Of a DNA stretch of 54,827 bases, positions 12,701 through 49,926 are shown piece by piece. The notes beneath the pieces were generated by a model. The model was not told where the DNA came from, ran no database searches, and was given only the letters and a program-made list of their open reading frames with translations. Source of the DNA: Phoronis australis (Eukaryota; Animalia; Phoronida); assembly GCA_002633005.1 (NCBI GenBank), contig NMRA01000546.1, positions 59,967 to 114,793 of the forward strand, given 5' to 3'. Made by a program: the position numbers and the translations under genes. The stretch's first letter is position 1. Each line of letters begins with the position of its first letter.

Positions 12701-15700
12701 GCAATATGGTGAAGTCTTGCTTTTTAACGGGGGTCCTAGCGTTACTGAACGAGAGGCAGGTTCAAGTAGATTCACCCGCCCGCGTTGAATAGTACTGTAT
12801 ATGCAATGGGATGTAACCCTGCCAATACACGTTGAATTGTATATGCAATGTGATGTAACCTGCCAATACACGTTGAATTGTATATGCAATGGGATGTAAC
12901 CCTCCCAATACACGTTGAATTGTATATGCAATGCGATGTAACCCTGCCAATACACGTTAAATTGCATATGCAATGCGATGTACCCCTGCCAATACACGTC
13001 GCTTTTTGACACCACCAAAATCAAAATCAGGAAGCCATCAAATGCGACCAACAACGTTAATCCTAACTGTTTGTCTATTACCCGTGTACCTACATGCATG
13101 TGCTCCTATAGCATTCAGTACATACATGTATGTTTTCCTCTTCCAAGGCATACTGACTGTGCTGGAGCTTTACCGGAATGTTGATTCATTTTGACTTTCC
13201 ATTAGTGGTCAACAGTAATACATGTAGTTTCAACAAGTCGACACATCTCGCACTAAAAGTCAGCATTTATTTGTCCACCACACCCCACATATCTGTATGT
13301 TTTTGTAGACAGGGATAAAGTACGCATTGATATTTTACTTGTGAATATTTTTCAAAATGAAATTAACCGTATTTCGAAACACTGATTTTTGCAAAACAGT
13401 AAAACAGCTTTGTCCCTTCACAGTGAAAATGTAGACAACTGATAGTTGGAGGAGACATTCGCTTTAAAGAAAAAGATTAGTGTATAGAAATCTTCTACTG
13501 ATTATCGTCCAAGCATTTCAACTGTATGATCCAAAGAGATTCATCGGTGTCACGGCGGCCTTACAGATTGTTCTTTTTTCAACCATATTCGCTCTGTGTT
13601 TCAGAATTTGAAAGGTATATATATACCCGTGTTTTGTATGAAAATAACTTGACGTAAAACCAGTCATTATTCAAGCAGTCTGATCTCACTGTCTCTCGAT
13701 ATATTTCTCCCATTTCTAGATCAGTGAGAAATGAGAGAGGGTGCTCGACTGCAGCGTTGTAATCACGTGGACATTAGGATGCTAAACCATTTAGATATTG
13801 AACCCAAAAAAGTGACTGATATGCGAGGGAGCAGTTTTCATGAAAAGGTCCAAGGAAAGTTTATGAACTGCATTTCTATTGGTGTTTGAAATAGACAAAT
13901 GTAGTACACATTTTCCGGTGAAATTGTGTACTCCAAAATGAGTTTTTTGTGGAAAATCCAATCGACAAAAGTTCTGTTTTGTTGGTAACTTTGTCAATAA
14001 ATCCCCTTCAAGGGTTTTTGTTGGAACTGATATGCGCTACCTTTGTAAGGAGGCAAGTTCTAAAACTTTCACCCATCTGAGCGTCACGCCTCCGGTAACA
14101 ATCCAGTTTACTTTTTCAAATAACAGGCAACGCTGCTTACGCCCTATATGTAGATCTTTGTTTTCTTTCACCTTCATAAGGGTCGTATTCTCGTTCTAGC
14201 GATGATCTACAAAAGTCAATGTGGAATTCACAACACCGCGTTGTGACAACAAATACTCACTGAACATAGTGGTCCGGGAAAATTTGTTACTAGTTAACTC
14301 CACCATCTCCCCCAAAACAGCTGGAGCTCTCAGTACATGAGCGGAGTATCAAAGCGTATTTGGACATATGGCAAAGTTTTACGTAATTATGCATGTGCCC
14401 ACTGCCAGGAATAATTCGAAGCTCTTTGAGACCTACATGAAACAAATAATTTCATTCGGTTACGCTATATAATATTTTCAAAAATTATTTAAAGGCCGAT
14501 GCTCTTTTATTCATCTATTGTATAAAATGCATAGTTTGCACAAACTCCGTCTTCCCAACTCCACTACAGACCTTCGTTGGCCCGTTTCGGCACTGCCTTG
14601 GTCCCAGGTGTTGCACCGGCCCCCTATTTGGATTCAAGGTGTTCTAGGAAAAAGCAGGCATGCGAATGTAGTTTTTAGTGGCTCAGATTTCCAGCGCCCC
14701 ATGCGCTGGATCACCGGTTCGGGTACGACACTAATATCGTAAATGCGGGGATGCTCAAACAATGTTTAAATGGCACTTGGAAGTATGAAGCAATGAAATG
14801 ACTCGATGGCGATAGCACATGTACCCTGGGTGAAATATAATTCATATTGGTTCGTTATTATTTTCAGGTTATAAAAGCAGTGGAAGATGGCGACTGTGCG
14901 CCTATTCAGAAATTGATCAAGAATAAAAGGAACCTTAACCAACCACTGTACAGATATGTAAGTATGCATACTTGAACACTCCCCTAAAATGAGCCTTGAA
15001 AATATTTTTTACAACCGTTACCTTTCAAATTAAATGACTTTATGTTGAATATTATGTTTGTCGCCAAAACATGTTAACAATTTTATTGCCATAGCAGATG
15101 GGATTAATCGATTCCATCACTTTGTTGTCTATTAGTTACAAAAAAACATTTAATTTTATTCATTTGTTATTGGGTTTGACGTACACGTAATTTGACCTCA
15201 TATGACCTTGAGGTTCCCTACCATTAACATAAATATTCATTTCTCAATCTGATCACTTTTTGGACTTTGCGCTTTCAGAGAAAAGAAGTCTTAAGTGCTC
15301 CTCTCGCGGTCCACCAGTTACTGAGAGAGCTAGTGTTAGTGTTAAAACGTTATTATCAATTGCATACTGAGCATAACCTGGGCAAAGACAGGACGACATT
15401 CTTTCTATTACGAATGCTAAGTTCAGTCGCTACATGTATATAGAGCTCCTACAAATACGCATACTATTTACTTTTGTCTAGAATCTTTTGGAATATTGTG
15501 AGTCCAATCCCGTGTTTGCGAGTCATTGAACGGTGTTTGCAAGTACGTGAGTCGTGTTTTTACGTCCGTGACCTTGTTTAGGGAGTCCGTTAACCGTGCA
15601 GTTTAGATACATGCCTTGTTTTTGTTCCATAAACGTATTATCAATGTCGTAAATCATGAGAAGCTGACACGTAAACAAAACCTCTGCATACTTAAGTAAT

Positions 15701-18700
15701 TTGGCCATTCGCAGTACCCGCGGTAGCGGGACTCAGTTCAGACACTCAACTGAGCAAAATTATATATCATGCCGCAACCTCAGACTTCACTATGTAACTT
15801 ATCACAAACACATTCTTAATTCTCAGATTTTGAGGATTAACGAAAGTCACGATACATAGAATTATGCAAATCTATCTGTGACTCGTCTGATGCTACTTGG
15901 TACGATAAGGCTAAATCAGTGGTTAACTCATGGCCTCCACTGGGGGGAGGGGGTGGGGGGTGTGCTGTCTGGACGTTAAACTAGTACATGCGCGCCCAGC
16001 CTTCAATATGGGGCCTCGAGTTCCTGACTTTGTGGACCTCATGGTAACAAAAATAGTGGGCGGACTAAAAAAAAACAAAAAACAGACGGGAGCACCATTG
16101 TAAATTACGCGTTTGCCCAAGTTTAACGGACTGATGCCTCGTTTTCTCGGACTTTTTGTCTCTCTGGGGCGGACCTTTTAGTCCAGTTCGGTGCGCGCAT
16201 GTAGTGTACAGTGTACACGTAACTTGCCCCACTTTGAACATCTTAATTACTCCAGATACTGTTCAGGAAAAAAATCATTTTGCAACTGAACAGAATTTGA
16301 AAATATTCAATGCAAATTTCTGCAAGATACAGCATGATCTCGAAGAATTGGACAGTTCAGTCAAGTTATCGCTCTCATTTGTGGACCCGCCTGCAAATTA
16401 CTCAGACTTTGTGGTATCTATCTTAGTATAGTATGATTTGTGCGAGTAGAAGAATATAATGATAGCTCAAAATTTTATGTCTGCTTGTTTAAAATATAAG
16501 TTGCAATAGTTTCAGTAAAAACTCATATTTTGTCAGCTGAAAAAGAGGTCGTTTGCCTATTAGTGGACTTAGAGTTGTAAACATCACTTTTTTCTGTTTT
16601 TTTGCGAAATAAACAGGACGCGTTTTCAAACAGGCCGTTACTTTACATTTCCGAATTATGATCCCCTGCCAGGACTCGCCCTTGCGCGCAAACAACAAAA
16701 CCAAGTAGTGTCGCAATGGGATCTACTATCTGCATAGGCATCTCACCATAGGGGTTTAGGGGGGAGGCGGGGTGGCAGTAGCCCCCTGTTTTCAGTGCTT
16801 CGCCACCCAAGGACTACGGGCGGTGCTCCTCAAGGGGTTTGCGTGCTATAGATCCCACTTTCTTTAGTGTTGCGCTACCCATGATCTGGGATATTATGAT
16901 TTTATAATCAGGGCAATTAACATGTTTTTCCAAGACAAAGTTTGGTGAATTGATCGTTTCAGAATTATTGGAAACGTCACTGTTTTGTGACGTTTTATCA
17001 CGTGCTCCGGAGTATTCCTCAACACATCCGAAAATTTGCAAAATTATACCTAGGTAAATAAAACAAAATACATTTCAACAAAACGCGTCAAAAACCCATT
17101 CCGCATTATTTCATGTTTTTGCGATACATGTATGTTTACAAATGTTAGTCGTTTATAGTTCCGTTCTCTGTTAGTGTTCTTTTGAACTTAATTTGGCAAG
17201 AACAAAATAATTGTCGGACCCACATGAGTTGCTTCAAATTTGCATGGTTTTTGCCGAGAGGTGTACATGTAAAAACCTAGAACGGTTATGTTGAAAATTC
17301 CAAATAGCATATTGCGACTTGATATGAGTGGCCAAAATGTCAGCTTGCGTGAAACGTTATGTATGTAGAGTGGTACAATAGTAACGTGTCAAGAATGAAT
17401 GGCAAATGTAGTGATATACAGTGGCAGGTATAGGATATCATAAGGGGGGGTGTGACATTTTTGTCTCGGGCAAATGCGACCACGCCTGCATGCACTTACC
17501 CAGCATAAACCGGAATTCAAACCTTCAACTGAAAACAAACCACTAAAAAAAAGATTCCGCTGTTGGTCTGAGCCCTCCGCCACACGCACAACCAAATTTA
17601 AACTACGCTCATTGTTAAATATTGTCTCATCAGCATGTTCATTACGGCGATTAATTAATTAACTCAATATTTCCTCACGCAATGAAGTTGGCTTGATTTC
17701 AATCCTGCGGCATGTTTAACTGCTAAATTGTGCATCAGGTTTTGAAAATAGTAGTGAAGTGCAGTACAGTGTTGACGTCCAAATGCATGTTTAATTATTG
17801 ATTTCCAGTCTTCTCGTAATAAATGGATTAATGTTCACGTGACGCATTGTACTTGTGGGGTGATTTTTCATAAACGACGAAATTTTAAAGATTTATTGAC
17901 GTGTAGATATTTTTCAAACAGGCAGTTGTTTTAATGTTCAACATGTTATTATAATTTTTGGTATGGGTGCAATGTTCTAGTACGCATTACTTTCCATCTG
18001 TACCTATTTTTATTTACTTTGTCCGTTTATTAACCGAGTGGTCCAAGTAGCCGTCCGCTAGTCGAGACGTAAATAAAAGTGCGGCTTATGTTCAAGATGT
18101 GGATTTTTTTGTGATCCGTGTTTGCTTGTAATAAAAGAAATCGTGATGTACCCTTTGCATATGAAATTCGTTGAAACCTCAAATTTTAACATTTCCCTCT
18201 TTAAACACCATTTTAGGTTAAACTATCGATCATCTAAATTTCTGGTACAAATTAGAAAATTGCAACCATGAACAAAACACCATTTAAAACGTCTGCACGT
18301 CAAACGAATGTCAAACTACTCAAATAGAAGAATTATAGCTTCATGGTGATTGGCCATCGTCTCTTTAATTGGTTCATTGTGATAAGGAAATGCCCTTTTA
18401 AATATATTTAAGAACAGGCAAATGTATTAATTCATCACGTGTACACGTGAAAACTGTATCCTACGGCAAAGCGCTATTTTCAAAAGCAACGGTTCTTCGT
18501 CTACTAAGCCATAGTCCAGTGACCCGTCATTTCAAGACGGATAAGATCAGAACCCTAACCCTAACCCTAACCTTTACCCTAACCCTAACCCTTACCCTAA
18601 TCTGAACCCTAACCCAAACCTAACAAAAACGACTAAAAACATTAAACTTTCATCCGTTTACCGCTTTTTAAAAGAGCCTTGCAGTTTTCAAAATCAATTT

Positions 18701-21700: not shown

Positions 21701-24700
21701 ATAATAAAACCAGGCGACCTCGTAAGTTTTACCCATATAATCGCTGCTTTCATATAGAGCACATTTGATTTCAACATTGCTGTGTATTACGTCGTATTTT
21801 ATGTCAAAAATTATTTTCCGGCAAACTACATTCCGTCCTGTTTAGCCGGTTAAAAAACAAAATATCAATTAATTTTTTTACTCCGATCCAATTGATGTTT
21901 AAAGATTATTATTAAGTTTGAATAAAGTCACGTTATTGTCACTAAAAGTGATATACTGTAGCTTGGTTTAGCTATAACTAGTCGTCCAGACTTTGATAAA
22001 AGTTTTCATATTTCTAAGAACATGTATGTCTTCGCACTGAGAATTATTAACATTAACAAACAAACTACGAGAGTGTAACCTTATTCTTTAAAATGATGAT
22101 CTATTCCAACCACGAGTAATATATTACCTAGTAAACAAAATAGATTTGGTAATTGTGTGTACAATTGTGATATTTCAACCTTTGCATGACGAGTAATTAA
22201 GATTCACAGTGAAGTTAGTGATTGTGAAGTTTGCTATAACCTGTTCATTGTTTCTGCAGCGCCAGACAGCACTTCACCTGGCAGCAGTGAGGGGCAGGAC
22301 GGAGGTGGTGAGGGTGCTGGTGCAGGGTGGGGCCGATGTAGACGTGCAAGATGAGGTAACAGAAACTAATTGAGACGAAATTAGAATTAAGACAATGTTA
22401 TCTTTATTACAAAAGCTGTAGCCTTTCTGAAAATTAAATAAAATATTTTGTGTGTAAATACACTTTTCATATCTCATGATTTCAACAAGTATTTTTCAAT
22501 ATGTACAGTGTACATGCATCTTAAGAAACATTGAGGTTTGAATTGTGTCAACAATATATTTGTCGACTTAACGTTGATACTTTTCTATTCTTAATGACAA
22601 TCGTCCATTCAACATTACAACTTTATATTAGACCCAAAGCCAGAAAATCGGTGAAGAAATACAACATGGCGGGATCGCTGTCAAGTTATGGAGGAACTCT
22701 GTAATTTCTGGCATTCGATGTCTGCAACATGTTCTGTTGTTACAGCAAAATTTTAAAATTACCTGTAACACTTGAATGTTGAAATCATTACAAGTATTGA
22801 AGCGTCTAAGAGGGGTCAATAATGTCTCATTTATATCACCTTAGAAGTTCACTTAACCCCGTGTATGTTAATTAGCTCTAAACGTTGATTGTCCATTCAC
22901 ACATCTCCATTGTATATTACATAGCGGGACTGGACACCGCTGGAGATGGCAGCATGGCATGGTCATACAGACACAGCGGAGGTGCTGTTGTCCAACAAGG
23001 CCAGTGTAGATGTACGTGATAAGGTAAGTAATGACACACTGGTTGTTTAGTCGAACTAGTTGTTTACACAAGGAAAGTTTAAAATGTTTACTGACATATA
23101 TCCTTGATCTTTTTCTCAATTTAATGTCCCAAAAGCGCGACAAATTAAATGTCGTCTGCTTAACATTCGTGAACAGCCAAAGCTGCGTAGACTAGTAAAG
23201 ACAAAGCAGAGTGACTTACGTGTACAGGTTAAATGATACATAAGGTAATTAAACTGTCCCTAATGCGTTTGAACCAAACGAACATTACACTGCGATAGTC
23301 CAACACTTTACACAAGTTCACTTTCCCCAGGGTATGTTAATTAGCTCTAAACGTTGATCGTCCATTCACACATCTCCATTTTATATTACATAGGAGGGCC
23401 GGACACCGCTGTACAGGGCAGCAGTGGGTGGTCGTCCACAGGCAGTGAAGCTGCTGTTGGAGAAAAAGGCCAGTGTAGATATACGTGGTGCGGTAAGTAA
23501 TGACACACAGGTTGTTTAGTTGAACTAGTTGTTAACAAACAAGATGATTACAACTGTTTAGGAACAAATTTTGTTGATATTTTTTCACAATTTATTGTCC
23601 TAAAACAATGACAAGTTCAATGCCGTCTGCTTTTGTTGATGAAGAACCAAAGCTGCGTAGAGTTGTAACATGCTCTGTAACGTTTTAAAATCTGCAACAC
23701 TTGATTCTTGAAATAAGTATTGTAGAGTCTTAGAGGGGTCAGTAATTTTTCATTTATGTCACCTTACAAGTTTACTTTACCCCGTTCATGGTAATTAGCT
23801 CTGAACGTTCATCGTCCATTCACACATCTTCATTATATATTACATAGGCGGGCCTGACACCGCTGTACGAGGCAGCAGAGCGTGGTGATACACAGACAGT
23901 GGAGTTATTGTTGGCCAACAAGGCCACTGTAGATGTACGTGATAAGGTAAGTAATGACACACAGATTGTTTAGTTGAACTAGTTGTTAACACAAGGATAG
24001 TTTAAAATGTTTAGTTACATATTTCCTTGATCTTTTTCTCAATTTAATGTCCCAAAAGCGCGACAAATTAAATGTTGTCTGCTTAACATTCGTGAACCCC
24101 CAAAGCTTCGTAGACTAGTAAAGACAAGGCAGTGTGACTCACCTGTACAAGTTAAATGATATATAAAATAATTAAACTGTCCCTAATGAGTTCGAACCAA
24201 ACGAACATTACACTGCGATAGTCCAACACTTTACACAAGTTCACTTTCCCCGTTTATGTTAATTAGCTCTAAACGTTGATCGTCCATTCACACATCTCCG
24301 TTATATATTACATAGGTGGGCCGGACACCGCTGTACGTGGCAGCAGGGCGTGGTCATACAGACACAGTGAAGGTGCTGTTGGCCAACAAGGCCAGTGTAG
24401 ATGTACGTGATGATCAGGTAAGTAATGATATACGGGTTTTTTAGTTGAACTAGTTGTTAACACAATGATGTTGAACACACAGCATGTGACTTGGCTGAAT
24501 CATTCAATGATTTAATTAATCGTGATTTATGATTTCATTTTAAACATGGACATTTTTGTTGCATTCCACCGCACGTGACGTGACGTGCACGCGACTTTAA
24601 CTAATTATAAACAGTTTTTAGTTCACCTAGACTTGCACAGGGACTTGGTTCTTTACTTGCATTACCACAGCACTCATTAAATGAATGTCGATCTGTTGTA

Positions 24701-27700
24701 TTGTATAAGATCTAGTTGTTGTATTTGAAACACTCTTTTCAATCACGTGACTATATCAGATCAGAGGAACTTTTAAAAATCCCACGCAAGTTATGTCTGA
24801 GTTTAAATGTCAGGTTGTAGTCCGTCCTGTTAAGTCACACCATTCATCAGTATTGCAACTGGTGTTGAAGTTTGAACTGGAAAAGTATAAAACTCGACGA
24901 CTTGATCACCCACCCACATCACTACTGTATAATGCTGATCAACATTATCTATTTTTATTCACTTACTGTAGTGGGGCAACACACCGCTGCACGTGGCATC
25001 TGCAGGTGGACATACAGAGGTATTGAAACTACTGTGCATGGAAAGCGGATGCGCCATAAATGCTGTCAACAAGGTATTGCAAGAGTGTTGTACTCTTTGA
25101 ATAGTTAAGACTGCAATAAATGTGTTTTGGACTATGAGTTCGAGAATCTATTCTTTCGTAATAAATATCTCGTCAAAAATGATCTGTCTCCTACTTACAA
25201 AGAATCTCTTCTTCACTCCATGTACCTCCCCAGATCACTCAGTGATTCAAAGCAGCTTGTCTAATCGTATTAATTTGGCATAAATAAAAACAGACCGAAC
25301 GCGCCATCAATGGTCGACAACAGCCACAGGTTCAGATTTCCTCTATTCATTAATTATAACACATGCAGGTTTTTAATCGGTTCACTGCAAGGAATCAGAT
25401 GCGAGTTTAGGAAGGAAATCTTGGAACGTTTTAGTCTTGCTTAGATTAATATAACGATAATTTAGCAATCAATTTATCCATGCGTCCCATGGCTTAACTG
25501 TACATGTATTGCAACCCCACCACACAACAGTGTTTGTTCCTGCCATGGTCGGATTTACTATTCTAAGAAGTTGAAATCTAGGGCGTGACTGAGGCAAAGT
25601 CCCGGGCAGTCCGTCGAAAGCACAAGTCCTTTTACCAGGGTGCCAAGCCGAGCACTCTGAACCTAGTAAACGAGCTGTGATCCACAATACATGTAAATCC
25701 AAAATATGTGTATACATGTGCAGGTACTTTAAATTGTGTATACACTGAAGCTGGTTTGTTTACGATTTTTGCGTGAATTTTGTTGTCGGAAACAGTACCA
25801 TGTTTTTTACCTGTCGTCTGCTTCACTTGTTTCAAAAATATGGCATCGTGCTTCATCTCGTTGATCTCTCGTCTTTTTGTTATGTAAGCAAGTTTTATTG
25901 TTTAGCTGCGGAAACTTTTAAAGCTATACGGTCGTATTTCATCATTTCAATGCGGAGCTTGTTTTGTCGTACGTGATTTCTTTTTGAAACATCTTGAATA
26001 GGAATGGACGTGATTTTTGTTGATGGCTACGTTATCAAAAGTTTCATGTGTCAAACATACATTAGCCACTCCAAATATCTCATTTACTGCTTTTAAATTG
26101 TACAACAGAAACTTCAAAATGATGTAGGAACTTATCCGAGGTCCACCACATTGGAGAATGAATACATGTACGCCTGATGTTCGGAACTGATTTTACAGTT
26201 TTGTGGGTAGTGCTCACACGGTACTCTGAGTTTGAGGATTTGTTCATTTATCAACAAACTATTCCATCAAAAAGACCTACATCTTGCTTTAAAACCACTT
26301 CTGTACATATTTCAGTTATTAAATCGAAGCGCCATTGATTTATTTATATGCCATGAAATGTGTTGGTGAAAGCCATTTTCATTCAAACTGCTATTTCTGC
26401 CCTATGCGCAAGCCAGTGATGTCAGGCTATTTTGCTCTGGGAATCCCTTCATAATCACCACATGCAGTAACAAAACGATGAATACTGACTGTTTGTTATA
26501 AGTGACACGTTTTGTACCCTTAAAATATCAACACAATTATTTAAGTTTGCCAATTTCAAGCTGAAAGAATTCAAATTTATGCCGGGATATCTTGCACAAA
26601 AATAGATTAATTACGAATGGGTGCCTGAACGTGTGAAACCCTTGCTTTCCTAGAATTTTGCAAACTCGCAAGGAAATAACAGATTATTTCCTTTGCTCAG
26701 TTGCACTTGATTCAGTTATTTTAGTTGACCAAAGTGAATACGTTTTGGAATCAATTTTATCATTTTGTTTTTTTTTCGGACATAGGCAGATACATTTGCG
26801 TAAATGTTGTTTCACATCTTGAGCTTAACATCATTTTGCTTCACTCTTAACTTAAACAATGCAAATGCCAAAAGTGAAAAATGTCACGGTAGGGCAGACA
26901 GTGTAAAAATAGTTATAACTTGGTGCCAAACACACCACGGTGAGTCGTCTAGCGCTCGTGAGCTATCATTCAAACTCGTACTAAACAACCCACTTTACTT
27001 TTTCATCACATGTTCAAGTCATGTGGCCTCAGAATATTTTAGATTATTGAGCAACTATAGTAAAAGTATTTGCCTATATCCGTGCAATAAATTTAAAAAA
27101 AAATGAAAAGTTGGCGCTGGGAAATGATCCAATACATTGTTTTTCCGATAGAGTACAGTACAATTGCCAATTATACTGATCGTGGCCAACTGTCGTATTT
27201 TTTGTTTTGTCCAGCAGTGCACACCGTGAAAATGTTTAGGTTTACTGACTCATGGTAAAACCGGCACGTTACATGCTATAGCCCTCACTTTCAGTTCTGC
27301 TAAAGAAAAAAGGCACTCATATATTTCCAGTCGGCTAAACACAAAAGTTTCGAGCTGTTGTGGTCATTACTGCACTCGTAATGTTCGTTCGACTAAACGG
27401 GTCGTTTCTTCAGTTGCTACGATTATCTCACCCGTTTTCTGGTAGACCCAGATTTACCGCTTTATATCAAGTTTTCAATTTCCCTTCTCTAATACTGAGA
27501 ACTATTCAGTAGCTGAACTAAATAACATTGACTATGTGTCATGAATATTGTTATTTTGTTAGTTTTCAAAGCGCCGACTCCTTAGTGTCTCTTGTTTACA
27601 GGAATCCTAAGTGTCGACGTTTTTACAGTTGATGAAGAAATTCATTTCTCAGATTAATACGCATGCCAGTAGTGCCTGTACTTTCCTCAAGCGTTCAAAT

Positions 27701-30700
27701 TCATTTTATTGAAACAAAACGTAGAAATTCGGAAATATAAAAGTATAGCCCATATAATAGACGTAATTGACATTTGACATGGACTTTGACGTCCATTTAT
27801 TATTCCTCCCATATTTTCTCAATAACGAATTTTTACGGCACCTAACTTAGTTTGCTCGCTGATGGCCACGCGTGTCCTTTGATGAAACTGTCATATAACG
27901 CTTCAATAAAGCATGATGCAGTTTCTGGATTCGAAGTTGGACATCCTTTATCAATCATTGTGGCGCACGTGAGAGGAATGGCAAGTCTTTCTTTTCTCTC
28001 CGGGACTGCAAAGTCCGAATTCTTCCAGTCAATACATACAGTATGGACGGTTGAAGAAGTTAATTCCACACGCCGTGTATGTCCAACACGCTGTACGCAA
28101 AATGGTTGTGAGTCCTTACGTATCGGATATTTATTTGGTTGGAAACTCTAAATATTGGCATCTGAAAAAATCAACTTTCACGCAAATTACTCTCAGAACG
28201 CAGCCAATGTTTTCCATAAAGTGAACGTTTGCAAATCTACATTTTGTGGAATAATTGAATTAGACAGCCGACATGAATTAAATGAAACAATTTCGTGTGC
28301 GAAAATGGACTTTTGCGGTATTACTTGGTAAACTTGTCGTGTAGATTTCTAGAAAAGATTCTAAAAATGTGCCAGTCACGAAACAAACAACGCTAATTTT
28401 ATAAAGATGATCGATTGCTAGAACGTGTGAAATATTTGAGCTTATTTGAAAGAAACGCACAGCAGTAGACGCGTGCATTTGAATCGTTTCATTTATTGTG
28501 ATGGTGACACATCAGTTTACATAGCGTCTGAGAATGATAAACGAACGAACAGTCTTGGAAGTAATTTTTGAAAAACGTGTCAATGTCGCAGTTGTCAAAC
28601 AGGTAAAACACCAATGTAAATCACATTGTGTAGCAAGACAGAACTTTAAAATATAATGAAAACACTTTCCGACTTAACTTTAATTTTCAAGTGTTGTGTT
28701 CTCTTCATCTAAGCGCTAAACATTCGTATAAACGTTGGTGCTGATTATCCAGGTTACCACAGTTTTAGATCACGACATACATTACATGTATAATTTATAC
28801 TGACCTCAATTTCAACATAGCTATAATTTTGTACATAATCTGACTCCATTTCCGGAACATTTACTTCCATGTTCACTAAAGATATGTTAGTGATTGGTGG
28901 CAACATATTATTGTTGGACCACATCTTATGTTCTCATAAGTATAAACAATAGTTTCAAATTGCCTTTATTATTCAGTGAAAAGCTACCAAAGTGGTTGGA
29001 TTACAAATTTATTTTTGTGAATGAAATATATCCTCATCGTTTCTTTCGGTTTGTATTTTGCAATTTTTCTAGCTATCTTCACTGAAATTGTCACCAAAGT
29101 ATCATTTACACAAACCTGTTCAGTTATTTAATGTTAGTTGTCCCAGTCCGTTCAACTTTGCATACATTAGTCGTGCTTACATGTCGACGGGTGCCGCCAT
29201 TCGGAAATTTAGTGAAGCTTGCTTTAGAGCCGAGGCAATAACTGTTATGTCAGCAAAAGTTTCATTGATTTTCTTATACATGCACAGTGTACACAATTCC
29301 AATATTTGCCTTGTGAGCTAATATGTCTGTTTTATACATTTTTACCTTATGTGCACGAAGTTGCACGAAGGCGTGGATTTAAAAAATTACAACAGTATAC
29401 AAAAATAATTATGCGCACATATACAACGGATTTCCACCTGTGCCTATAAGCAAGGCATAAGCATGCGTCTACAAGTATATGTGAAACACTTAAGAAGGAA
29501 ATTTCCTTAGTTTCTTTATTTCCTAAGCACGGAACGCACTTGTAATGTTGTGCAGTGGGTTACGATTTCCTTGGTTTACTCGAAAGAATTAAAGTGCATT
29601 ACAATGTGACAAGTAAATATATGACACGCATGTACAGCATATGCTTAAGCGGTCGAATAAATGTCAATGGCAATCTGACTATTCGTGTATTCGATCAGCA
29701 ACACAGATATTGATACCTGAAAGCTATTCCTACTGTGACAGAAGAATGGCCAAATTCAGTTGACATAATATAGACCGAGCATCTGCTTGAGCGAAATCAG
29801 TTTGCAAAATTTAAAAAAGAAAGGACCAAATAGTTTACGTAAGCCACTGGTGTGCCAGCTGCAAATGACTAACGTTCATTGAAAAATAACGATCACACCC
29901 AGTGGGCTCAAGGATTAGGATCATTCATTATGATTCGGCGAATTTAGTTAGTCATGGTGAATGCGCTTTTGATCATTTTCATCATTTTGTTTTTCTTTAG
30001 ACTTGGGCGGATATATTTGATTACAAGTTGTTAGACATCTTGATGAGCTTAGCAGTATCTTGCCTCACTCTTAACGTAAATAATGCAAATGACAAATCTG
30101 ATTAAAAATGTCACAATCATACAGGTACAGTAGGTTGCGCTGTGTAAAATACAAAGTAGGTGTCGAACACACCTTGGTACGTCGTCAAGCACTCGTGAGC
30201 TATCATTCATAAACTGAGTAAACAACGTGCTTTTGCATCACGTGTTCAGTCCATGCCACTTTAGTGTATTCTAGTTTTTTAAGTAGTTATAGTTATAGTG
30301 TATGGTATATCGGTAAATAAATAATCCAATGCTTACATGTAGCTTTACCAATAGAGTACAATGCACACGCAATCCTGCTCTTGACAAACTGTCGTATTTT
30401 TATTTTTCCAGCAGTGCACTAGCTCAAAGTGTTCATTTTTTTAACTCACGGCAAAACTAGCATAGCACGTAATATATCGCTCGAGGAGGCAGTGTGGCCT
30501 GGTTGATAAGTGCCTGCTTTCTTTACTCGAGGTCGTGGGTTCAAGTCCCACCAGGTCACACTGCTAAACCCTTGAGCCAGGTTTCTAGGTCCTCAGCTCG
30601 GTTTTAACCATATATTAACAAAGCATAAAAATATTTCCAGGTGATCAGTGCAATGGGTCCACATGCGANGAGACGCTGTGACGTGAAATTTAAAGAAGTT

Positions 30701-43100: not shown

Positions 43101-46100
43101 TCATCCATCCACTGGGGAAAACGTGACACTCCTAGGGACATGAACACAGCACTCCGTTGGCATGTTGTATTCTGAACTTCATGAAAAATCATGATCGGAT
43201 TACTTTACAGCTATCGTAGTGTTGCGACATTTCGACGACATGTCGCCGACATAGTCGCTTGACAAATCCATCGCATCTTAAAAGATTCCAACACAATTAA
43301 TTCAATTCTCTGATTTCGTTAAAAGTTGAAATCACATATAATAAGCATGTAAATAGTTATGACGTAAAACATTCCCTTGCCATGATGACATTCATTTGTA
43401 GAGTGCTGAGCTGCATTTGAAGTACAGTGATCACGGATTGGAAAGGCAAGACAGTTGCATGGTTCTGAGTATTGAACGGCGTTTTTGGCTTGTACATGTA
43501 AATGCTCTCTACAGTGTACGCATATGATCTTTGAAGCCAGAGAAAGGAAGTCCTATTGTGTTAACAAAATTTGGAGACCCATTCAATTAGGATAAGTTAC
43601 ATGTGCTTAGTTTTGATTTTCCTATTGAGACAGACAATCAGCGAGCACTGCACATTTAGTTGTTTGAGAATTGTTAAATTTCGTTAGACCGATACCTCTT
43701 ATTTATTATCACAGGATGAAGAAAAATCCGAGGAAGTTGCACGGGAAAATGATCACCAATCCAATGCCATCTACCTTAAGCTGCCTTCTAGCGATGTGGT
43801 ACGTAATCAGAATTGTATGGAAAAGCTGGCATGAATGAACTTTTCTCACCAAAATTTCAAAACTCGTCGACGTTTATATGCGCCCACATATTTATATATG
43901 GGCGCATTATGCCGTCATCTCCGTCCGTTCGTCCGTCCAGCATCCGTCCGGTGTCCGCTAATTCATCTCCAAAACCTTTTGACATACGTTCATGAAATTT
44001 GGCACATGTGTTCCATTCATTAATGGGACGGCATGAGCGAAATTTGGAACAGATCCGACTACCGGTGTGCCCCCTAGTGGCAATTTTAGTTTTTTTACGC
44101 TAACCTTTGTATCTTCAAAAATCCTGAACGGATTTTCATGAAATTTGATATGTATGCACCTATTAGTGAGATGACGGATTTGACTTAGTTAACGCCATCT
44201 AGTGGCCATTTTTACTGCTTTCGAGTATGTCTTTTTGCGTCCACCCCTCTATCAACCAAACCGCTCAAAGGATGTTTGTGAAAATTGGCCTGTATGTGCT
44301 TACTATAAAGAGGACGGTTGATGATGAATATTCTGACGATTTTGACTACTGTGGCGCCTCCTAGTGGCATTTTTGCGCCTATGTCTGTATCTCCTAAACC
44401 ATTTTCAGGATCTTTACGAAATTTAGTAAGTGTATTTATATGATGTTAACAACAGATGACGACGACTTTTGGACGGATCCAACTACCGGTGTGCCCCATA
44501 GTGGCAATTTTATTTTTTACGTTTTCCTTTTGTATCTTCAAAAGTCCTTAACGGATTTTCATGAAATTTAATAAGTAAGCACCTACATGTATTATTGAAA
44601 TGACGCTATCCTTCCGTTTTTGGATGGATTTGACGCAATTTGCGCCACCTAGTGGGCATTTTACTGTATTCGAATCTGTTTTTTTGCGTCTACCCCTCTA
44701 TCAACCAAACCGCTCAAAGGATGAATGTGGAAATTGGCATGTATGTGAGGACGATGGATGATGATTTTCCGACGATTTCGTCTACTGTGGCGACTCCAAT
44801 TGGTAGTTTTGTTTTTGTTGCGTCTAGGGCTATATCTCCTAAACCGTTCACAGGAATTTAGCAAGTGTATTTATATGATGTTGACTACGCATGACGACGA
44901 CTTTCAGACAGATCTGACTACTGCTATGCCCCCTAGTGACAATTTTAGTTTTTTACGTTTCACTCAGTATCTTCAAAGGCGGATTCAACAGACACTGTGC
45001 CCACTAGTAGCAATTTCATTTTATTCTGTTTTCCTTTGTTTCTCTGAAGTTCCTTGACAGATTTTTATAAAATATGGCATGTTCCTGTTTTTGGATGGAT
45101 TGTATGTTTTTGCGCCATCTAGTGACTGTTTTTATGATACAAATAAATAACCTTAAAAGCACATCATTTACAATGCATTCGTGAAACATAAACAGAAGGA
45201 ACTATTGGTCGCTATTCTATGTTTAGAACCTGGGTAAAATTCACATTTTATTATAAAATAAACACTTAAATATTACGGTTTTGGATTGTGAAACGCTATC
45301 ATGAAGTTTGTCATTTACTTGTCTCCTTGTCTCATTTGATAGATGGATGGAAGAGATGCATCTACCTTGAAGGTGCAAACCTCCCATTTAATGTACTCCA
45401 TACACGTGTGTGCCTAATATCTTCAAATATTTTGGCATTTCTTTCATGAAACGCCGGGCTAAAAAGTATTGCCAATATAACAAAAAGCAATCGATTTAAC
45501 GCAGTTTTGTTGATTTACGAAAAGCTTGATTTCATAACTGGTCTCAGAAACTTACATCTCGACATAGGAGACACCGCAAATCTGTGTAATTACTGTGCAA
45601 TTTGATAGGGTACCCTTTGATGTGTTCTTACTAATGTTAAAGGGTGCTTAGTTAAAGGCTTACAGTTCATTCAAAGTAAACCTTCTTTTCCTGCAGATGA
45701 TCCACGTCTCTCAAACCGTATCCGGCGAAAATCCAACTGGAGCCACTGACTCTCTTGGGTACCATGACTACGCTGACGCATTAGCGGATTTTTTATTGGA
45801 TCACGAGCTAAGCACTGGAACTACAATCGGTCTTCTTGGCAACTGGGGGGCTGGAAAAACGTTCTTGTTGAACATGTTGAAGAAACGAATAATGGAGAAA
45901 AACGCTGGTAATAATTTAAAATATTTTTGACAAACAACCGCCAGACCCGTTTCAATGAAACCGCTTTTGGTCACGAGGCACCGTTACAGGCAATTGCTAT
46001 TACGTCGTTCATCCAGCCGTGTTGTATCAAAATATTTTTGGCAATGGGATGCCTTAAATACGACGCGCTTTTCCTCTACAAATGGAACCGTTTCTCTGAA

Positions 46101-49100
46101 TGAGCAGGAAATTCAATGACTAGAATTCGACATTGGCTACGTGTGTTACTGCAGGCTTCACGGTAAGGAGAGATAAACTGGAAGTTTTCGTCTCAGGGGT
46201 CGGAGCTCTGCCTCCAAGACGCCTAGTCGGTACAGGCCGCGTCGCTCAGTTGCCTTTTTAGGTAATCCCATAGTGCACTGATTGCCAGGGCCAGGTCTCT
46301 TATCTTTGTACTCAAAATGAACTCGAAATTATTTTTGGCAATTTCACTGCTCCTATTGCGGGAGCTTAAGATAAGTGGTTATCAGGCTGTGCTCGAATAC
46401 ATCATAACTTATGCATATGAGTTTACAGTTCATCATAATTATGCATATGAGTTTACAGTTCATCATAATTATGCATATGAGTTTACAGTTCATCATAACT
46501 TATGCATATGAGTTTACAGTTCATCATAACTTATGCATATGAGTTTACAGTTCATCATAACTTATGCATATGAGTTTACAGTTCATCATAACTTATGCAT
46601 ATGAGTTTACAGTTCATCATAACTTATGCATATGAGTTTCCAGTTCAAGTTCGCACTTGAAAACCCTGATGTTCGTGCTCGAAACACAAGTAGAAACTCG
46701 AAATTTCGAGTTCAAACTTGAACTTTTATCTTTCATATTGGGTTTATAAACTGCAAACTAAGGCTATTTATATCATCCATGTAAGTCATTATGTACTCCA
46801 GCACAGAATAATAGACACTTATCTTGAATTCACAGTAAAGTAGAGTAGAATAATGCCGAACATAATTTTGAGTTACATTTCCAGTAAAGGACTGGAAACC
46901 GGGCCAGGGATACATGTAGGTTGTTTTGTCCTCGGCAATGAAGTTTGGCCACCGTGTATAGAACATGATTGGGACGTGAATGGAAATAAGTAACACTGGT
47001 CTGTGGTCTCATCGGTGCGTGCTGCATGGGCGGCCCAGCACTGAAAAGTGAGGGCGTGGCTATAGCCTCCCAACTCCCATAGACCATTGGCGCCGGAGCC
47101 TTGTAAAGTGGGGGATATAGCCCCCGACAGTCCCTTATGCTTCGCCGCTTATGTGCTGATATGGAGTGGTGCTGGGAAGCCCTGCTATCATAACCCGAAA
47201 AAATAAGGATTTTTGAAAAAGGTCTTCTTTCAGCTGGACTTGAAGCACATTTATACCGAAAAGTTCCCATTCATTTTATACTGAAGCAAAGAAAAAATGA
47301 TTGAGAACCTTATCAAAAAATTGTTCCGATGTCTTTCCAAATAAGAAATAAACGGGCCACAAGCAACGTGAATCTCCCTGTTTTCGCGTAAAATACGCGA
47401 TCACTAACGGGACTACGTCACAGCCAACAATGGCATGTCTGACGTGGAAATTATATGTGTGTGATATTTCAGGTTCACATTGTTTTTTACAAAACCTCTC
47501 TATTGTAATGGTGGGCGAGATACGTATTCGATTCTGATCTGCGAATGCTGACTCCCGTTCAGTAACGCTAGGACCTCGCTAAAAAGCAAGACTTCGCGAG
47601 ATTACGTGAGATATTGCCATGCATTTTAAATAAGAACATTTGACTTTGACTAGGTTTTAGCTAGGTCCTAGTGTAGGTCCTAGCGTCTACTGAATGCACG
47701 CCTGGTAACGGCTACCTTAAGTAGCATAGCTCGTAAAATATTAATTATTGTTTTTGCATTTCTTTGGTTTCAGATGACAAAACCCAGAAAATAAAGTGGA
47801 GTGTTGAGGAGTGGAGGGCATACCCTTTGTGGGCTTATTTCGTCACGGTGTGCTGCATTCTCGCCGTTATAACTGGCTGGACGTGGCTCGCTGTACTGTT
47901 GGAAGCAGACGCCTTTGAAGACCTTGATTTCTATCTCTACGTTAGTACAAGGAACATCTGTATAGTTGTGATGCTCATTACAATTGTGCTTTGTTATCAG
48001 GTTTATTTACTTTGTCATTCACGGATGCGATTTCTATTCACCGGAACAGTGGTGGTCATTGTCTTTACTGTAGTTTTATACCTTTGTTCACCTGATCACC
48101 TTGCAGTCCTTTCCAACATGAGCAAGCTTTTTCGTTTCGCGAAGAGTGCATTACCCGATCGCCTTGCGGCCTTCACCAACGTGAACAAGCTTTTGCTTCA
48201 GGTGATGAGTACGTATTCTCTCGTGATTTCCACATCAATTGTTGTGCTCATTCATTTGGTATCCAGGTTTGTGAAGCACTTGGAAAACTTCCTAAAGATC
48301 GTACTTCTCGTCTTTTGCCAAACGCCTCCGTCACCCACTGAGAAGGCTAAAGTAAAGATAATTGAAGTTCAGTTTAGTGCTTGGGAATATGCAGGTTCTG
48401 ATTTTCTTTGGGCAGGTATTGTATGTAACATGTCTGCTAAAGTGGAGGAGTATTTTGGATTCTGGAAAACAAGACTGTTTCAGGTTTTTCATGCGTTGAC
48501 AGACATGTCAGTGGTGGATGATGAAGAACCGAATGTATCAGCAGACAGCCAGTACGTGAACATTCGACTACGACGAATTTCATCCTTACCCTGCTATGTA
48601 GTGGCTTGGTTCTGTTTCTGTGGGACGTCAGCCTTTTGTATTAGGGGTTTTGTTACGCTTGCTAAAAAATATTTCCCAGATGAAGCATTTCCTGCCGTAA
48701 TTTTTTCAGTGATACTTCTTGTGGTGAGCAAATACAGCGCCATCAAATCATACCTGGTATCACCGGCGCAGCGTATAATGAACATGTACAAATCGTTTTC
48801 AAATTCTTCATTTGAAGAAGAGCTGGGTTTCATGTATCGAGTGAAGGGGGAAATAAATAATTTAGCTAAGTTTATCAAATACATGAATTGCGTCGACCAA
48901 AGGCATTATCGCCTGTTGATAGTAATCGATGACATTGATCGTTTAGAGAAGAAAAAGATCCGTAAAATTTTACAAGCAGTGAATGTTCTCCTATCTGACT
49001 CATCCCATCCTTTTATTTCGATTCTAGCCATTGACCCCAGAATTGCAGAATCCGCTGTAGAGCAGTCTTTCATGTCGAACAGGAGCTCCAAATCCTCTGA

Positions 49101-49926
49101 TCTAAGTGGCCATGAATACTTGAAGAAAATTGTCCACCTTCCTTTCTTTATACCTGTACCGAACAGACATGATGTCAGAGTTTTTTATCAGGCTTTGACG
49201 AAAGGGAGTGATAGCTCTGATTCCGCATACAACAGAAGTAAAATTGAAAGTAAACGAGGTGAATTAGCTGGAGTTAATACTGGCGGTGAAGAAGGACGTA
49301 GAGTAGGAGGAGAAGCAGGGAGAAGAATAGTAGAACTGAAGAAACAAAATGGGGAGGAAATAATGGGAAGAGATAAAAAACAAGATAAATATGGTGAAAC
49401 AACCGATATCAGGGATAGGGTCTCTAGAGACGATAAGCAGGCGGTAGCAGTAGCCATCGAAGAATACGACAAATGTGCCCAGTTTATTTATCGCAATCCA
49501 AGGAGCATGAAACGAATATTTAACGTCATGATGCTAACCTTGAAATTGTTTTGGAAAAATGAAATTAAACGAAAAGAAGACATCTCGGATTTGGCGATGT
49601 GGACGATATTATCAGAACAGTGGCCATGTGCAGCAAATTGGTTGGTCGCAATTTACGAGGATGAGAAAAATAATATTTCCTCAGATACTTGTGTTGTTGA
49701 TCTTTTTGAAGGTAAAGAAGACGAACTGCATGAAATTAAAAAGACACCTGTTTTTGAAAGTATGGATCGCAATTCGGAAACGTTTTTTTCGTTTCTACGC
49801 ACTCACCCGCGGAATGCCAGCGACTTGATGAAATTTACATCTGTTTCTGTCAACACCGATCACAGCATCAGAGATAAAATAGCAAGAATGAGGAGAAAAC
49901 GCGAGCATAGTTCTGTTAACACGTAA
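9673..49926 (+). CDS. Multi-exon gene: ankyrin-repeat, transmembrane KAP-family P-loop NTPase (NKPD1/Kidins220-like), ~1,095-1,115 aa; join(9673-9738,14868-14957,22260-22355,22925-23023,23394-23492,23848-23946,24316-24417,24972-25073,36698-36781,43715-43798,[45343-45372 or 45405],45697-45907,47774-49926)
   Basis: Exons read by hand with AG/GT boundaries. Phases are all compatible (phase 0 throughout, phase 1 between 45907 and 47774). The spliced product is stop-free and reads as ankyrin repeats followed by KAP motifs GxWGxGKT, FSAWEYA, hhhhDDhDR, YLKKIVHLPF, NPRxxKR and EQWP. Confidence 0.85.
10181..10376. repeat. Minisatellite, 50-bp unit x4
   Basis: tatactaaagttgtccactgttatcctgttactgac... 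starts at 10181, 10231, 10281, 10331. Confidence 0.95.
10467..10498 (+). promoter_or_regulatory. Composite CRE-like / NF-kB / CRE element in intron 1
   Basis: TTACGTCA (10467), GGGAATTTCC (10481-10490) directly abutting TGACGTCA (10491-10498). Confidence 0.45.
10979..11108. repeat. Minisatellite, 41-bp unit x3
   Basis: catcaccaaacctctgcacgctactatgtagacg.actgaa repeated. Confidence 0.9.
12603..12759 (+). mobile_element. MITE (Harbinger-like), copy 1
   Basis: Imperfect TIRs tcagtagcgctaggacc ... ggtcctagcgttactga, CWG at both ends; inverted second copy at 47548-47704. Confidence 0.65.
12797..13000. repeat. Minisatellite, ~42-bp unit x5
   Basis: gtatatgcaatg.gatgtaaccctgccaatacacgttgaatt repeated; explains the repetitive ORFs 12653-13099 and 12762-12950. 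Confidence 0.95.
14868..14957 (+). CDS. Exon 2, ankyrin N-cap (VIKAVEDGDCAPIQKLIKNKRNLNQPLYRY)
   Basis: Acceptor ttattttcag|, donor TAT|gtaagt, 90 nt, phase 0-0; AVxxGD...LI pattern of a capping repeat, joining the RQTALHLAA of the next exon. Confidence 0.8.
16920..21180 (+). repeat. Diverged direct duplications in intron 2: ~16920-17360 vs ~19085-19473, and ~17838-18495 vs ~20512-21180
   Basis: Shared colinear words, e.g. cagaatta.tggaaacgtc, aacaaaacgcgtcaa, ttctctgttagtgttcttt; acgcattgtactt, gataaggaaatg.cc.tttaaatatatt.aagaac. Confidence 0.75.
18551..18624 (-). repeat. Interstitial telomeric-like (TTAGGG)n tract, ~12 units
   Basis: aaccctaaccctaaccctaacc... with degenerate units. Confidence 0.9.
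22260..22355 (+). CDS. Exon 3, ankyrin repeat (RQTALHLAAVRGRTEVVRVLVQGGADVDVQDE)
   Basis: tttctgcag| acceptor, GAG|gtaaca donor, 96 nt; canonical TALHLAA..G..EVV..L...GADV. Confidence 0.93.
22925..23023 (+). CDS. Exon 4, ankyrin cassette A (RDWTPLEMAAWHGHTDTAEVLLSNKASVDVRDK)
   Basis: tacatag| ... AAG|gtaagt, 99 nt = one 33-aa ankyrin repeat. Confidence 0.93.
23394..23492 (+). CDS. Exon 5, ankyrin cassette B (EGRTPLYRAAVGGRPQAVKLLLEKKASVDIRGA)
   Basis: tacatag| ... GCG|gtaagt, 99 nt, phase 0-0. Confidence 0.92.
23848..23946 (+). CDS. Exon 6, ankyrin cassette C (AGLTPLYEAAERGDTQTVELLLANKATVDVRDK)
   Basis: tacatag| ... AAG|gtaagt, 99 nt, phase 0-0. Confidence 0.93.
24316..24417 (+). CDS. Exon 7, ankyrin cassette D (VGRTPLYVAAGRGHTDTVKVLLANKASVDVRDDQ)
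   Basis: tacatag| ... CAG|gtaagt, 102 nt, phase 0-0. Confidence 0.93.
24972..25073 (+). CDS. Exon 8, ankyrin repeat (WGNTPLHVASAGGHTEVLKLLCMESGCAINAVNK)
   Basis: ttactgtag| ... AAG|gtattg, 102 nt; canonical GNTPLHVA..GH.EV.KLL. Confidence 0.93.
26750..30460 (+). repeat. Diverged ~500-bp direct repeat pair: ~26750-27260 and ~29973-30460
   Basis: Shared tcactcttaac.taaa.aatgcaaatg, ctcgtgagctatcattca, atagagtaca, aactgtcgtattttt, ccagcagtgcac. Confidence 0.75.
30485..30634 (+). mobile_element. tRNA-derived SINE, copy 2
   Basis: GGAGGCAGTGTGGCCTGGTTGATAAGTG...GGTTCAAGTCCC, then a non-tRNA tail (ttgagccagg...cagctcggttttaaccatata) shared with copy 1. Confidence 0.75.
35661..35853. repeat. Minisatellite, 63-bp unit x3
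   Basis: ttgacagtggactgtgagaaagtgatttgacgaagcaaatgtggacttcacg at 35661, 35724, 35787. Confidence 0.95.
36100..36538. repeat. Minisatellite, ~50-bp unit x~7
   Basis: ttctacaccactccttcgtgtaacccagcatcacc repeated with indels. Confidence 0.9.
36698..36781 (+). CDS. Exon 9, ankyrin C-cap (NGETAYDVCGREGNVDESTVENIKGFLK)
   Basis: tttttgttacag| ... AAG|gtagaa, 84 nt; joins as NAVNK|NGETAYDV, a typical terminal ankyrin half-repeat. Confidence 0.85.
37110..37158. repeat. (CA)n microsatellite
   Basis: Direct reading. Confidence 0.98.
37447..37630 (+). pseudogene. THAP zinc-finger remnant (transposase N-terminus)
   Basis: MLRCFVPACPN*...GITFFTFSR/ESEMLRKWL...KHLRVCRL: CxxxxC, F..F, KW and RVC motifs with one stop and one frameshift. 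Confidence 0.7.
38129..38865 (+). mobile_element. Interspersed repeat nested in the Kolobok element; second copy at 52337-53079
   Basis: Both start tgttaggggaatct and share tttggctcactagt.tagtattttc, tgtaggctacgg, cgtgttgtgaactgct, ctgccgtcag. Confidence 0.65.
40363..40610. mobile_element. PIF/Harbinger-type MITE
   Basis: TIR GGGCTCGTTCCAACAAAACTGACTTA vs TAAGTCAGTTTCTTGGAACAGGCCC; CTG duplicated on both sides; internal ttaag repeats. Confidence 0.8.
41610..42960 (+). repeat. ~280-bp direct repeat pair (~41610-41890 and ~42700-42960)
   Basis: Shared ttcctctccatc.g.tcacctactgtg, aattttgtttttatga.gtg.tcggatgtgc, ttacacagattaaga, atactgactttta. Confidence 0.8.
42383..42570 (+). repeat. Degenerate interstitial (TTAGGG)n tract
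   Basis: gttagggtt, gggttagggc, ggttagggttagggt, ggttagggctagttagag. Confidence 0.8.
43715..43798 (+). CDS. Exon 10, linker (DEEKSEEVARENDHQSNAIYLKLPSSDV)
   Basis: ttattatcacag| ... GTG|gtacgt, 84 nt, phase 0-0, open. No domain motif, so supported only by splice signals and phase. Confidence 0.6.
43873..45130 (+). mobile_element. HINE/DINE-like (non-autonomous Helentron) element with tandem core repeats
   Basis: 5' stem-loop atgcgcccacatatttatatatgggcgcat, (CCGT)n microsatellite, then ~130-160-bp cores containing ttcatgaaattt and gcc.c.tagtgg. Confidence 0.7.
45343..45372 (+). CDS. Possible small linker exon 11 (MDGRDASTLK; alternative in-phase donor after 45405)
   Basis: Long pyrimidine tract followed by gatag| acceptor; donors AAG|gtgcaa or CAC|gtgtgt both keep phase 0 but are weak. 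Confidence 0.35.
45697..45907 (+). CDS. Exon 12, KAP NTPase N-terminus with Walker A (D.LG...YA..LA..L ... TIGLLGNWGAGKTFLL)
   Basis: cttttcctgcag| acceptor; KAP-diagnostic GxWGxGKT; donor G|gtaata in phase 1 matches the next exon. Confidence 0.92.
46368..46827. mobile_element. Degenerate inverted-repeat element (MITE) containing a minisatellite
   Basis: aagataagtg...ctgtgctcgaatacatcataactta on the left matches the reverse complement of taagtcattatgtactccagcacag...cacttatctt on the right. Confidence 0.6.
46401..46646. repeat. Minisatellite, 30-31-bp unit x8
   Basis: atcataa(c)ttatgcatatgagtttacagttc, almost perfect copies. Confidence 0.98.
47548..47704 (-). mobile_element. MITE (Harbinger-like), copy 2
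   Basis: Reverse-complement match to 12603-12759. Confidence 0.65.
47774..49926 (+). CDS. Terminal exon: TM helices, KAP NTPase core (Walker B RLLIVIDDIDR) and C-terminal helical region
   Basis: 720-codon ORF in the track; real start is the acceptor tttggtttcag| at 47773 (phase 1). Motifs FSAWEYAGSDFLWAG, ELGFMYRVKGEI, PFISILAIDP, GHEYLKKIVHLPF, NPRSMKRIFN, WTILSEQWP. Confidence 0.95.

Follow-up and report, generated by a model that had tools for sequence, protein, structure and literature searches.

Why should four neighbouring copies of an ankyrin-repeat exon differ from one another more than the introns that separate them? The question arises in a stretch of 54,827 nucleotides (nt) from the phoronid Phoronis australis (GenBank assembly GCA_002633005.1, contig NMRA01000546.1, positions 59,967 to 114,793, forward strand; hereafter the window, with positions counted from its first letter), intron-rich DNA of animal type in which four tandem units of 454–469 nt each carry one phase-0 ankyrin-repeat exon (cassette exons A–D, Table 1). 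An earlier note on this DNA had read the pattern as diversifying selection on binding specificity. We hold with high confidence that the cassettes are under positive selection, and we find that they lead into a candidate gene for a transmembrane KAP nucleoside triphosphatase (NTPase).

The cassette exons are all bounded by AG and GT and are in phase 0-0; A, B and C have 99 nt and D has 102 nt, exon A (the one tested) matched Pfam Ank at E=1e-7, and the encoded repeats are 58–70% identical. Sister introns AB and CD differ by 26 mismatches and one gap in 370 nt, close to the ~28/370 of the earlier hand alignment, and the exon counts of that alignment were recovered exactly: 21/99 nt between A and C and 18/99 nt (ungapped) between B and D, with a single synonymous codon change in A/C, while B/D and A/D have none. 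It was likewise correct that the framework codons it named are constant (13 of the 33 codons are invariant, these included) and that codons 1, 3, 8, 11 and 12 differ at positions 1 and 2 only. The excess of exon differences over those of the AB/CD intron pair was significant (Fisher p=1e-4 and 1.6e-3). The introns compared in this way are the most similar pair, the sister introns upstream of A and of C being ~14% diverged; with all alignable intron pooled, the exons were still the faster (39/198 versus 56/599, p=2e-4). The claim that the exons outpace the introns stood against the AB/CD pair and the pooled introns, but not for A/C set against the upstream sister introns alone.

This divergence is almost only non-synonymous, as had been stated. 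Of 40 departures from the majority letter only 2 were synonymous, compared with a neutral share of 0.283 (p=2.3e-4, tree-free), and over the six exon pairs pN was 0.17–0.36 and pS 0–0.13. Codon models in our own implementation (four exons of 32 codons, three topologies, two frequency models) gave an overall omega of 8.4–10.6; under all topologies and frequency models M0 differed from omega=1 (p=1e-4 to 4e-4) and M2a was favoured over M1a (p=4e-5 to 5e-4). Third positions were variable in 5/32 columns, similar to the flanking intron (16/97), whereas positions 1 and 2 were variable in 26/64, more often than the intron (p=9e-4). With third positions no more variable than the flanking introns, the high dN/dS does not come from a low dS, and synonymous constraint was rejected as its cause on these counts. 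Decay of CpG as the main cause was rejected too, the CpG-bearing codons 5 and 31 being invariant in the copies and in RNA reads. Diversifying selection is borne out by the omega values and the third-position test, together with multi-allelic reads and an overlap with the positions varied in designed ankyrin repeat proteins (DARPins), both described below.

DARPin libraries randomise positions 2, 3, 5, 13, 14 and 33; position 10, left unrandomised in the original library, belongs to the framework but can touch the target (PMC8248824; general background in PMC8229355, PMC8602657, PMC9590205 and PMC11284679). In the order 2, 3, 5, 13, 14, 33 and 10, these positions correspond to exon codons 33, 1, 3, 11, 12, 31 and 8. 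Randomised positions account for 5 of the 8 codons that show three or more amino acids (p=0.0013), and codon 8 is a sixth contact position among those variable codons. The statement that variation falls largely on DARPin-randomised positions holds for these five codons, but not for codon 8, which corresponds to an unrandomised position, or for codon 31, which corresponds to a randomised one and is invariant in A–D. Nature varies largely the same positions as DARPin engineers do, plus position 10. Positive selection falls on the concave ankyrin face, which was assigned by DARPin numbering rather than on a 3D model. From the position of the codons we infer that binding specificity may be the selected trait.

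The same codons vary in RNA, being multi-allelic in about 200–300 reads per run over three runs. No RNA record was among the indexed run matches, and these runs were added by species label. Runs X5–X7 (bearing the species label of the best DNA match; ~18% of each run's reads, likeness filter 80%) cover the exons almost only by first mates on the minus strand and therefore, by the usual stranded protocol, represent sense RNA. GT–AG joints A–B, B–C and C–D were present, with few reads each, among the 15 of 148 joints listed, and the D–E5 joint has replaced letters at the junction. Joints from D to D (29 and 30 reads) and from E0 to D (6 reads) could reflect alleles, paralogues or exon skipping, and an A-to-D joint (1 read of X7 and X1 contigs) is inseparable from other alleles; upstream of D-type exons the reads carry D-type, E0-type and at least two other exons. 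The reads aligned to exon D in the three runs (Table 1) gave 33 variant rows, and no indel rows were found among them. Summed read diversity was highest at codons 8, 11, 12 and 3 (among codons 2–31), codon 1 being multi-allelic at lower depth. At codons 3, 8, 11 and 12, named beforehand by the earlier note, all 7 of 7 zero-fold sites were variable at a level of at least 12% in at least one run, compared with 1/17 of the other four-fold sites (p=2e-5), and read variability followed within-locus variability (Spearman 0.60, p=4e-4). Thirty of the 33 variant rows recur in the X2 contigs, which carry intron flanks and no joints; for this reason RNA editing, if X2 is DNA, is not the source of the variants, and it was rejected as the main cause on that condition. 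The read pool comprises alleles and, probably, paralogues, and the cassette family is expressed and diverse, which is shown for the family and not for this allele. Lack of transcription, which would have told against the earlier interpretation, was not what we saw: family reads are sense-strand and spliced, mostly from other alleles or loci.

Two side observations belong here. X1 (22351–24414), for which the DNA label is guessed, contains intronic pieces together with precisely spliced joints, suggesting a total-RNA library or processed copies, and because of the spliced joints it was left unused as DNA evidence. Loose read ends at E5 (24972–25073) depart from the window sequence in the first codons of the exon, and the hairpin of this non-duplicated exon seems to be variable too.

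How the units came to resemble each other can be read in part from their trees. Core sequence groups intron AB with intron CD, and the central parts of introns that are not sisters align poorly; the exons, in contrast, give star-like trees, and their four informative sites support three mutually incompatible splits of A–D. We infer that the array may have arisen by tandem duplication followed by conversion across the exon and its flanks. Both strands of the window were free of additional or inactivated cassettes, and the intron end that the units share had no match among the metagenome contigs scanned.

The earlier note was right that the ankyrin cassettes are real, but it had overlooked their probable continuation into a KAP NTPase gene. 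A model of 11 exons (14868–49926), assembled by eye with a frame test, gives a single frame of 1,072 amino acids (aa) with GT–AG introns throughout and one terminal stop, in the order cap-like exon, six ankyrins (E0, A–D and E5, one repeat per exon, all phase 0-0), C-cap half repeat, linker and KAP NTPase. Exons E8 and E9 both match the KAP P-loop NTPase family PF07693 above its curated cut-off (Table 1), and no Pfam match to NACHT or NB-ARC was found. Walker A at model residue 333 and Walker B at ~736–746, by the usual motif definitions, are both intact, and six hydrophobic 19-mers (residues 379–679, by hydropathy only) lie between them; because Walker A precedes the first membrane segment, the ankyrin array is placed on the P-loop side of the membrane. 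Furthermore, the model aligns to the amphioxus protein P0135 across the ankyrin–KAP junction (residues 33–386, E=1e-13). To judge from sequence, the ankyrin exons and the KAP NTPase very probably form one gene.

For E9, the single-sequence fold reached a predicted local distance difference test score (pLDDT) of 38 and the alignment-based fold, which lacks Walker A, one of 73.6. No Foldseek match to the E9 fold was found at E≤0.001; the top match was a weak one to RdrA of RADAR (Z 8.1, root-mean-square deviation 6.1, 289 aligned; Foldseek E 0.06). PADLOC gave matches to PifA and QatA (E=7e-13 to 1e-4). The PifA, QatA and RdrA matches indicate distant kinship only.

Taken together, the cassettes would on balance seem to be the cytosolic, positively selected non-self sensor of a membrane-anchored KAP NTPase. 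By way of their conserved flanks the units would undergo unequal crossing-over and gene conversion, which would keep the framework and the silent sites alike and change the number of cassettes, and selection would retain new residues on the hairpin and inner-helix face, a diversification that would proceed in the germline by duplication, conversion and selection. The variable ankyrin surface, facing the cytosol, is predicted to recognise fast-changing foreign proteins. By analogy with the bacterial proteins PifA, EF_KAP and Tmn, the binding of a ligand might act as the switch for oligomerisation and the turnover of NTP, and the output, an ion flux or a signalling complex, might be delivered by the membrane segments; that the protein is itself a direct membrane effector, on the same analogy, is rather doubtful.

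Bacterial KAP NTPases defend against phage, EF_KAP requiring Walker B for defence (PMC13552941), PifA leads to membrane depolarisation, and Tmn, a member of the related YobI family, uses a repeat arm to bind a phage protein and is an exporter of Mg2+ (PMC13001434). KAP homology and membrane segments in or beside the NTPase are common to our model and to the bacterial KAP and YobI proteins (PifA, EF_KAP, QatA and Tmn), and sensing through a repeat array, which in Tmn is a helical-repeat arm, would be a further likeness. However, the homology is distant only, and Tmn is of the YobI family, with an arm that is not ankyrin.

The pattern of selected repeats has already been published for fungal NLR ankyrins (PMC4986451) and for brown-algal cassettes (PMC3341825; PMC11378527). 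In Podospora PNP-UDP/NACHT/ANK proteins, Dyrka et al. (2014) reported positive selection on the inner helix and hairpin, on the concave face (PMC4986451). The fungal arrays resemble ours in their internally similar ankyrins, concave-face selection and attached P-loop NTPase, and repeat number varies in the fungi. In contrast, the NTPase here is a transmembrane KAP and not NACHT or NB-ARC, the repeats are N-terminal, the host is an animal, each repeat has its own exon with duplicated introns, and no N-terminal effector was found; the fungal order of effector, NTPase and C-terminal repeats is not that of our model, and the repeats, at 58–70% identity, fall below the 85% threshold of the fungal study. 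The brown-algal ROCO-LRR and NB-ARC-TPR cassettes are alike in having one repeat per exon, N-terminal to the NTPase, concave-face positive selection and variable exon combinations (PMC3341825; PMC11378527). They differ in that ankyrin here replaces LRR or TPR, KAP replaces ROC-COR or NB-ARC and the protein is membrane-anchored, and the inactivated or inverted intronic cassettes of the algae have no counterpart in this window.

The recipe of the fungi and brown algae, homogenised repeats with a selected face, is extended here to a new NTPase class and to animals, and strong diversifying selection on the ankyrin face of a KAP gene points to a role in defence or recognition in animals. That role is open to experiment, as the variable codons are named, the cassettes swappable and Walker mutants straightforward. 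Bolder, and in our estimate improbable, is the idea of a DARPin library made by nature, in which positively selected and recombining ankyrin sensors, built of exon modules, form a family on a transmembrane KAP that acts like PifA or Tmn. If true, animals would have, next to NLRs, TLRs and ROCOs, a new class of variable immune receptor, and a part in defence would fall to the KAP NTPases of particular invertebrate lineages. In the literature listings and abstract openings searched, which took in few subscription papers and no supplements, we found no KAP NTPase of an animal whose ankyrin cassettes diversify; the only animal KAP NTPases there were the Kidins220 scaffold and the little-studied NKPD1, and no functional account of invertebrate NKPD1-like KAPs was found.

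A number of points weigh against the reading of the cassettes as a non-self sensor, and the first are functional. Kidins220 (ARMS), the described animal ankyrin–KAP protein, serves as a signalling scaffold, and in our model, from which the first exon is missing, we found no distinct effector domain. The selection could then be real and the protein no pathogen sensor, being either a Kidins220-like scaffold with an ankyrin face that escapes a parasite protein or a receptor in self/non-self, gamete or symbiont recognition, which we think unlikely. The domain order is shared, since Kidins220 too has ankyrins followed by a KAP NTPase with inserted membrane segments (here according to the gene model, in which the linking joins are unseen), and sequence alone cannot separate the chase of a ligand from escape. 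In trees made with FastTree (91 rows) and IQ-TREE (34 chosen rows), the query KAP domain had a long branch placed among invertebrate lineages and belonged neither to crown Kidins220 nor to vertebrate NKPD1; exclusion from the Kidins220 clade had a support of 100, a position as its sister was not rejected (approximately unbiased test, p-AU 0.49), and forced grouping with vertebrate NKPD1 cost 16.4 log-likelihood units and narrowly escaped rejection (p-AU 0.07). Against a scaffold, the duplicated cassettes, the differences in their order and the many variants present side by side are better explained by a repertoire than by a single escaping protein. Kidins220-type repeats are old and dissimilar, whereas the cassette repeats are recent, and neither the SAM-like domain PF23307 (in the frame of the last exon) nor a long tail was found here. 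Among 26 ankyrin–KAP proteins, the 20 with three or more motif-anchored repeats had mean repeat identities of only 25–39%, and similar (homogenised) repeats were found in none of these 20.

The closest relatives are KAP proteins of Lingula, Branchiostoma, hemichordates and tunicates, only 25–35% identical, the best KAP identity to any protein being ~34%. The best sequence relatives are invertebrate NKPD1-like KAPs (Lingula P0001; Branchiostoma P0134 and P0135; Saccoglossus P0138, Ptychodera P0145 and Glandiceps P0140), several of which likewise have ankyrins before the KAP domain, but few and degenerate ones (fewer than three motif-anchored repeats) without a recent cassette array. In a domain scan of 40 of the 150 matches, chosen and mostly long, 6 were of Kidins220 type with a SAM domain and 5 had ankyrins before KAP outside the Kidins220 clade. 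An ankyrin profile search returned 134 generic ankyrin proteins (120 listed); none of this family was among the matches listed, and those of top identity that were checked (n=5) were unrelated. Some of the proteins seen on the way deserve mention: P0134 (Branchiostoma lanceolatum XP_066275097.1) has an N-terminal KAP followed by NACHT and LRR, either a real KAP-NLR fusion or a merged annotation; PAW-ankyrin-KAP and C2-ankyrin-KAP architectures in the hemichordates P0138, P0145 and P0281 and in amphioxus P0135 have varied N-terminal modules; and P0019 (Nucella) and P0021 (Babylonia) combine PF20720 (a STAND-type NTPase) with ankyrins of median best-neighbour identity 0.85–0.88, which may have evolved under the same regime, with a STAND protein as the scaffold.

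The next points concern the gene. The joins E5–E6–E7–E8 are not among the read joints listed (15/148), and E7–E9 lie outside the read alignments; the linking introns are long (11.6 and 6.9 kb), E8 starts with ATG, and no ATG exon was found upstream of 14868 in a model built by eye. The exon at 14868..14957, the weakest of the model, has no Pfam match and lies outside the region of read alignments, and E6 has no Ank match in Pfam. The selected array could accordingly end at E5 or E6, or splice elsewhere, making two neighbouring genes, and the several upstream exon types in the reads make other partners possible for some members of the family. We consider this quite improbable: phases are compatible with no stop over 11 exons, the E8 acceptor is clean, the same ankyrin–KAP order is present in amphioxus P0135 and the hemichordates P0138, P0140 and P0145, and between the two parts we recognised neither a terminal exon with a stop nor another gene.

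The remaining points concern selection itself. The codon models rest on only four short sequences, and recombination is able to inflate M2a and other site models. The A/C excess over its own upstream intron pair alone gave p=0.13, and in the reads the zero-fold over four-fold excess taken across all sites gave p=0.37 (15/56 versus 3/21). Only 5, 12 and 13 reads were at least 99% alike on exon D and most were below 95%, and these therefore come from other alleles or loci and not necessarily from this one. Codons 7, 14, 16, 19, 20 and 23 were flagged as well, partly off the contact face and including changed outer-helix codons (19, 20 and 23), so that the change is not confined to ligand-contact positions. 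DARPin-type positions are the most tolerant ones in any ankyrin, and the overlap alone would fit tolerance. Relaxed constraint after duplication, with gene conversion or CpG decay, might mimic selection in such a setting; the small sample, the upstream sister introns and the CpG in some variable codons agree with this. We nevertheless judge it very improbable, as relaxation expects an omega of ~1 and more synonymous changes than were counted, CpG-bearing codons 5 and 31 did not vary, and A–D are without stops or frameshifts. It is the omega values, and not the positional overlap, that set relaxation apart from selection. Least credible of all is that the variable codons are written by a diversifier, targeted or somatic, through directed hypermutation or through copy-choice from donor exons. 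Multi-base changes clustered inside single codons and the many read variants would suit it, but the third positions of codons 1, 3, 8, 11 and 12 are unchanged in A–D, as selection and not a mutator predicts, donor cassettes were found on neither strand of the window, the reads pool loci and individuals, and all six letter pairs occur. An adenine-specific mutator of the diversity-generating retroelement type was rejected as the main cause.

Table 1. Coordinates of the cassette array and of the exons of the candidate gene model
Feature	Position	Strand	Evidence
Candidate N-cap-like ankyrin exon, 30 aa, phase 0-0	14868..14957	+	AG/GT ends, open frame; weakest exon of the model
E0, older non-cassette ankyrin exon, 32 aa	22260..22355	+	Pfam Ank E=1e-9; E0-like ends before D-type exons in reads
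Homogenised units, exon with the last ~62 nt of the intron before it and the first ~43 nt of the intron after it	22863..24460	+	85–88% identical, all four copies
Exon A, ankyrin cassette	22925..23023	+	A-to-B splice joint in reads
Intron AB, sister of intron CD, 7% diverged	23024..23393	+	Alignment
Exon B, ankyrin cassette	23394..23492	+	B-to-C joint: 1, 5 and 2 reads in X5, X6 and X7
Exon C, ankyrin cassette	23848..23946	+	C-to-D joint in reads
Intron CD	23947..24315	+	Sister of intron AB
Exon D, ankyrin cassette, 34 aa	24316..24417	+	362, 323 and 244 reads aligned, sense strand
E5, last full ankyrin exon, 34 aa	24972..25073	+	Pfam Ank E=6e-10; D-to-E5 joint in reads
E6, candidate C-cap half repeat, 28 aa	36698..36781	+	GT-AG, open frame; colinear with the last pre-KAP ankyrin of amphioxus P0135
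E7, candidate linker exon, 28 aa	43715..43798	+	GT-AG, open frame; picked by eye
E8, KAP NTPase start with Walker A	45697..45907	+	PF07693 42.7 bits (cut-off 20); PADLOC PifA E=7e-13
E9, remaining KAP NTPase, ~six hydrophobic segments, Walker B, C-terminal helical domain, stop	47774..49926	+	PF07693 87.9 bits (cut-off 20); hydropathy; model pLDDT 73.6

Elsewhere in the window, 7355–7506 and 30485–30668 hold two copies, inverted relative to each other, of a short dispersed element that has boxes like those of a tRNA promoter (by eye) and very deep RNA and contig coverage, probably a short interspersed element; ARAGORN tRNA and Rfam scans gave no matches, this element included. Open frames on both strands at 35144–35940, near a 63-nt tandem repeat, are likely to be a transposon remnant, and X5, X6 and X7 each show a strand-switching read joint (35179/35450). 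Nested direct repeats of ~140 and 435–450 nt (43965–45120) lie in the intron that precedes the Walker A exon. An open stretch of 139 aa at 53273–53692 resembles, by eye, the end of a reverse transcriptase of a long interspersed element, with no Pfam match, and interstitial telomere-type hexamer repeats lie on opposite strands at 18541–18624 and 42390–42540.

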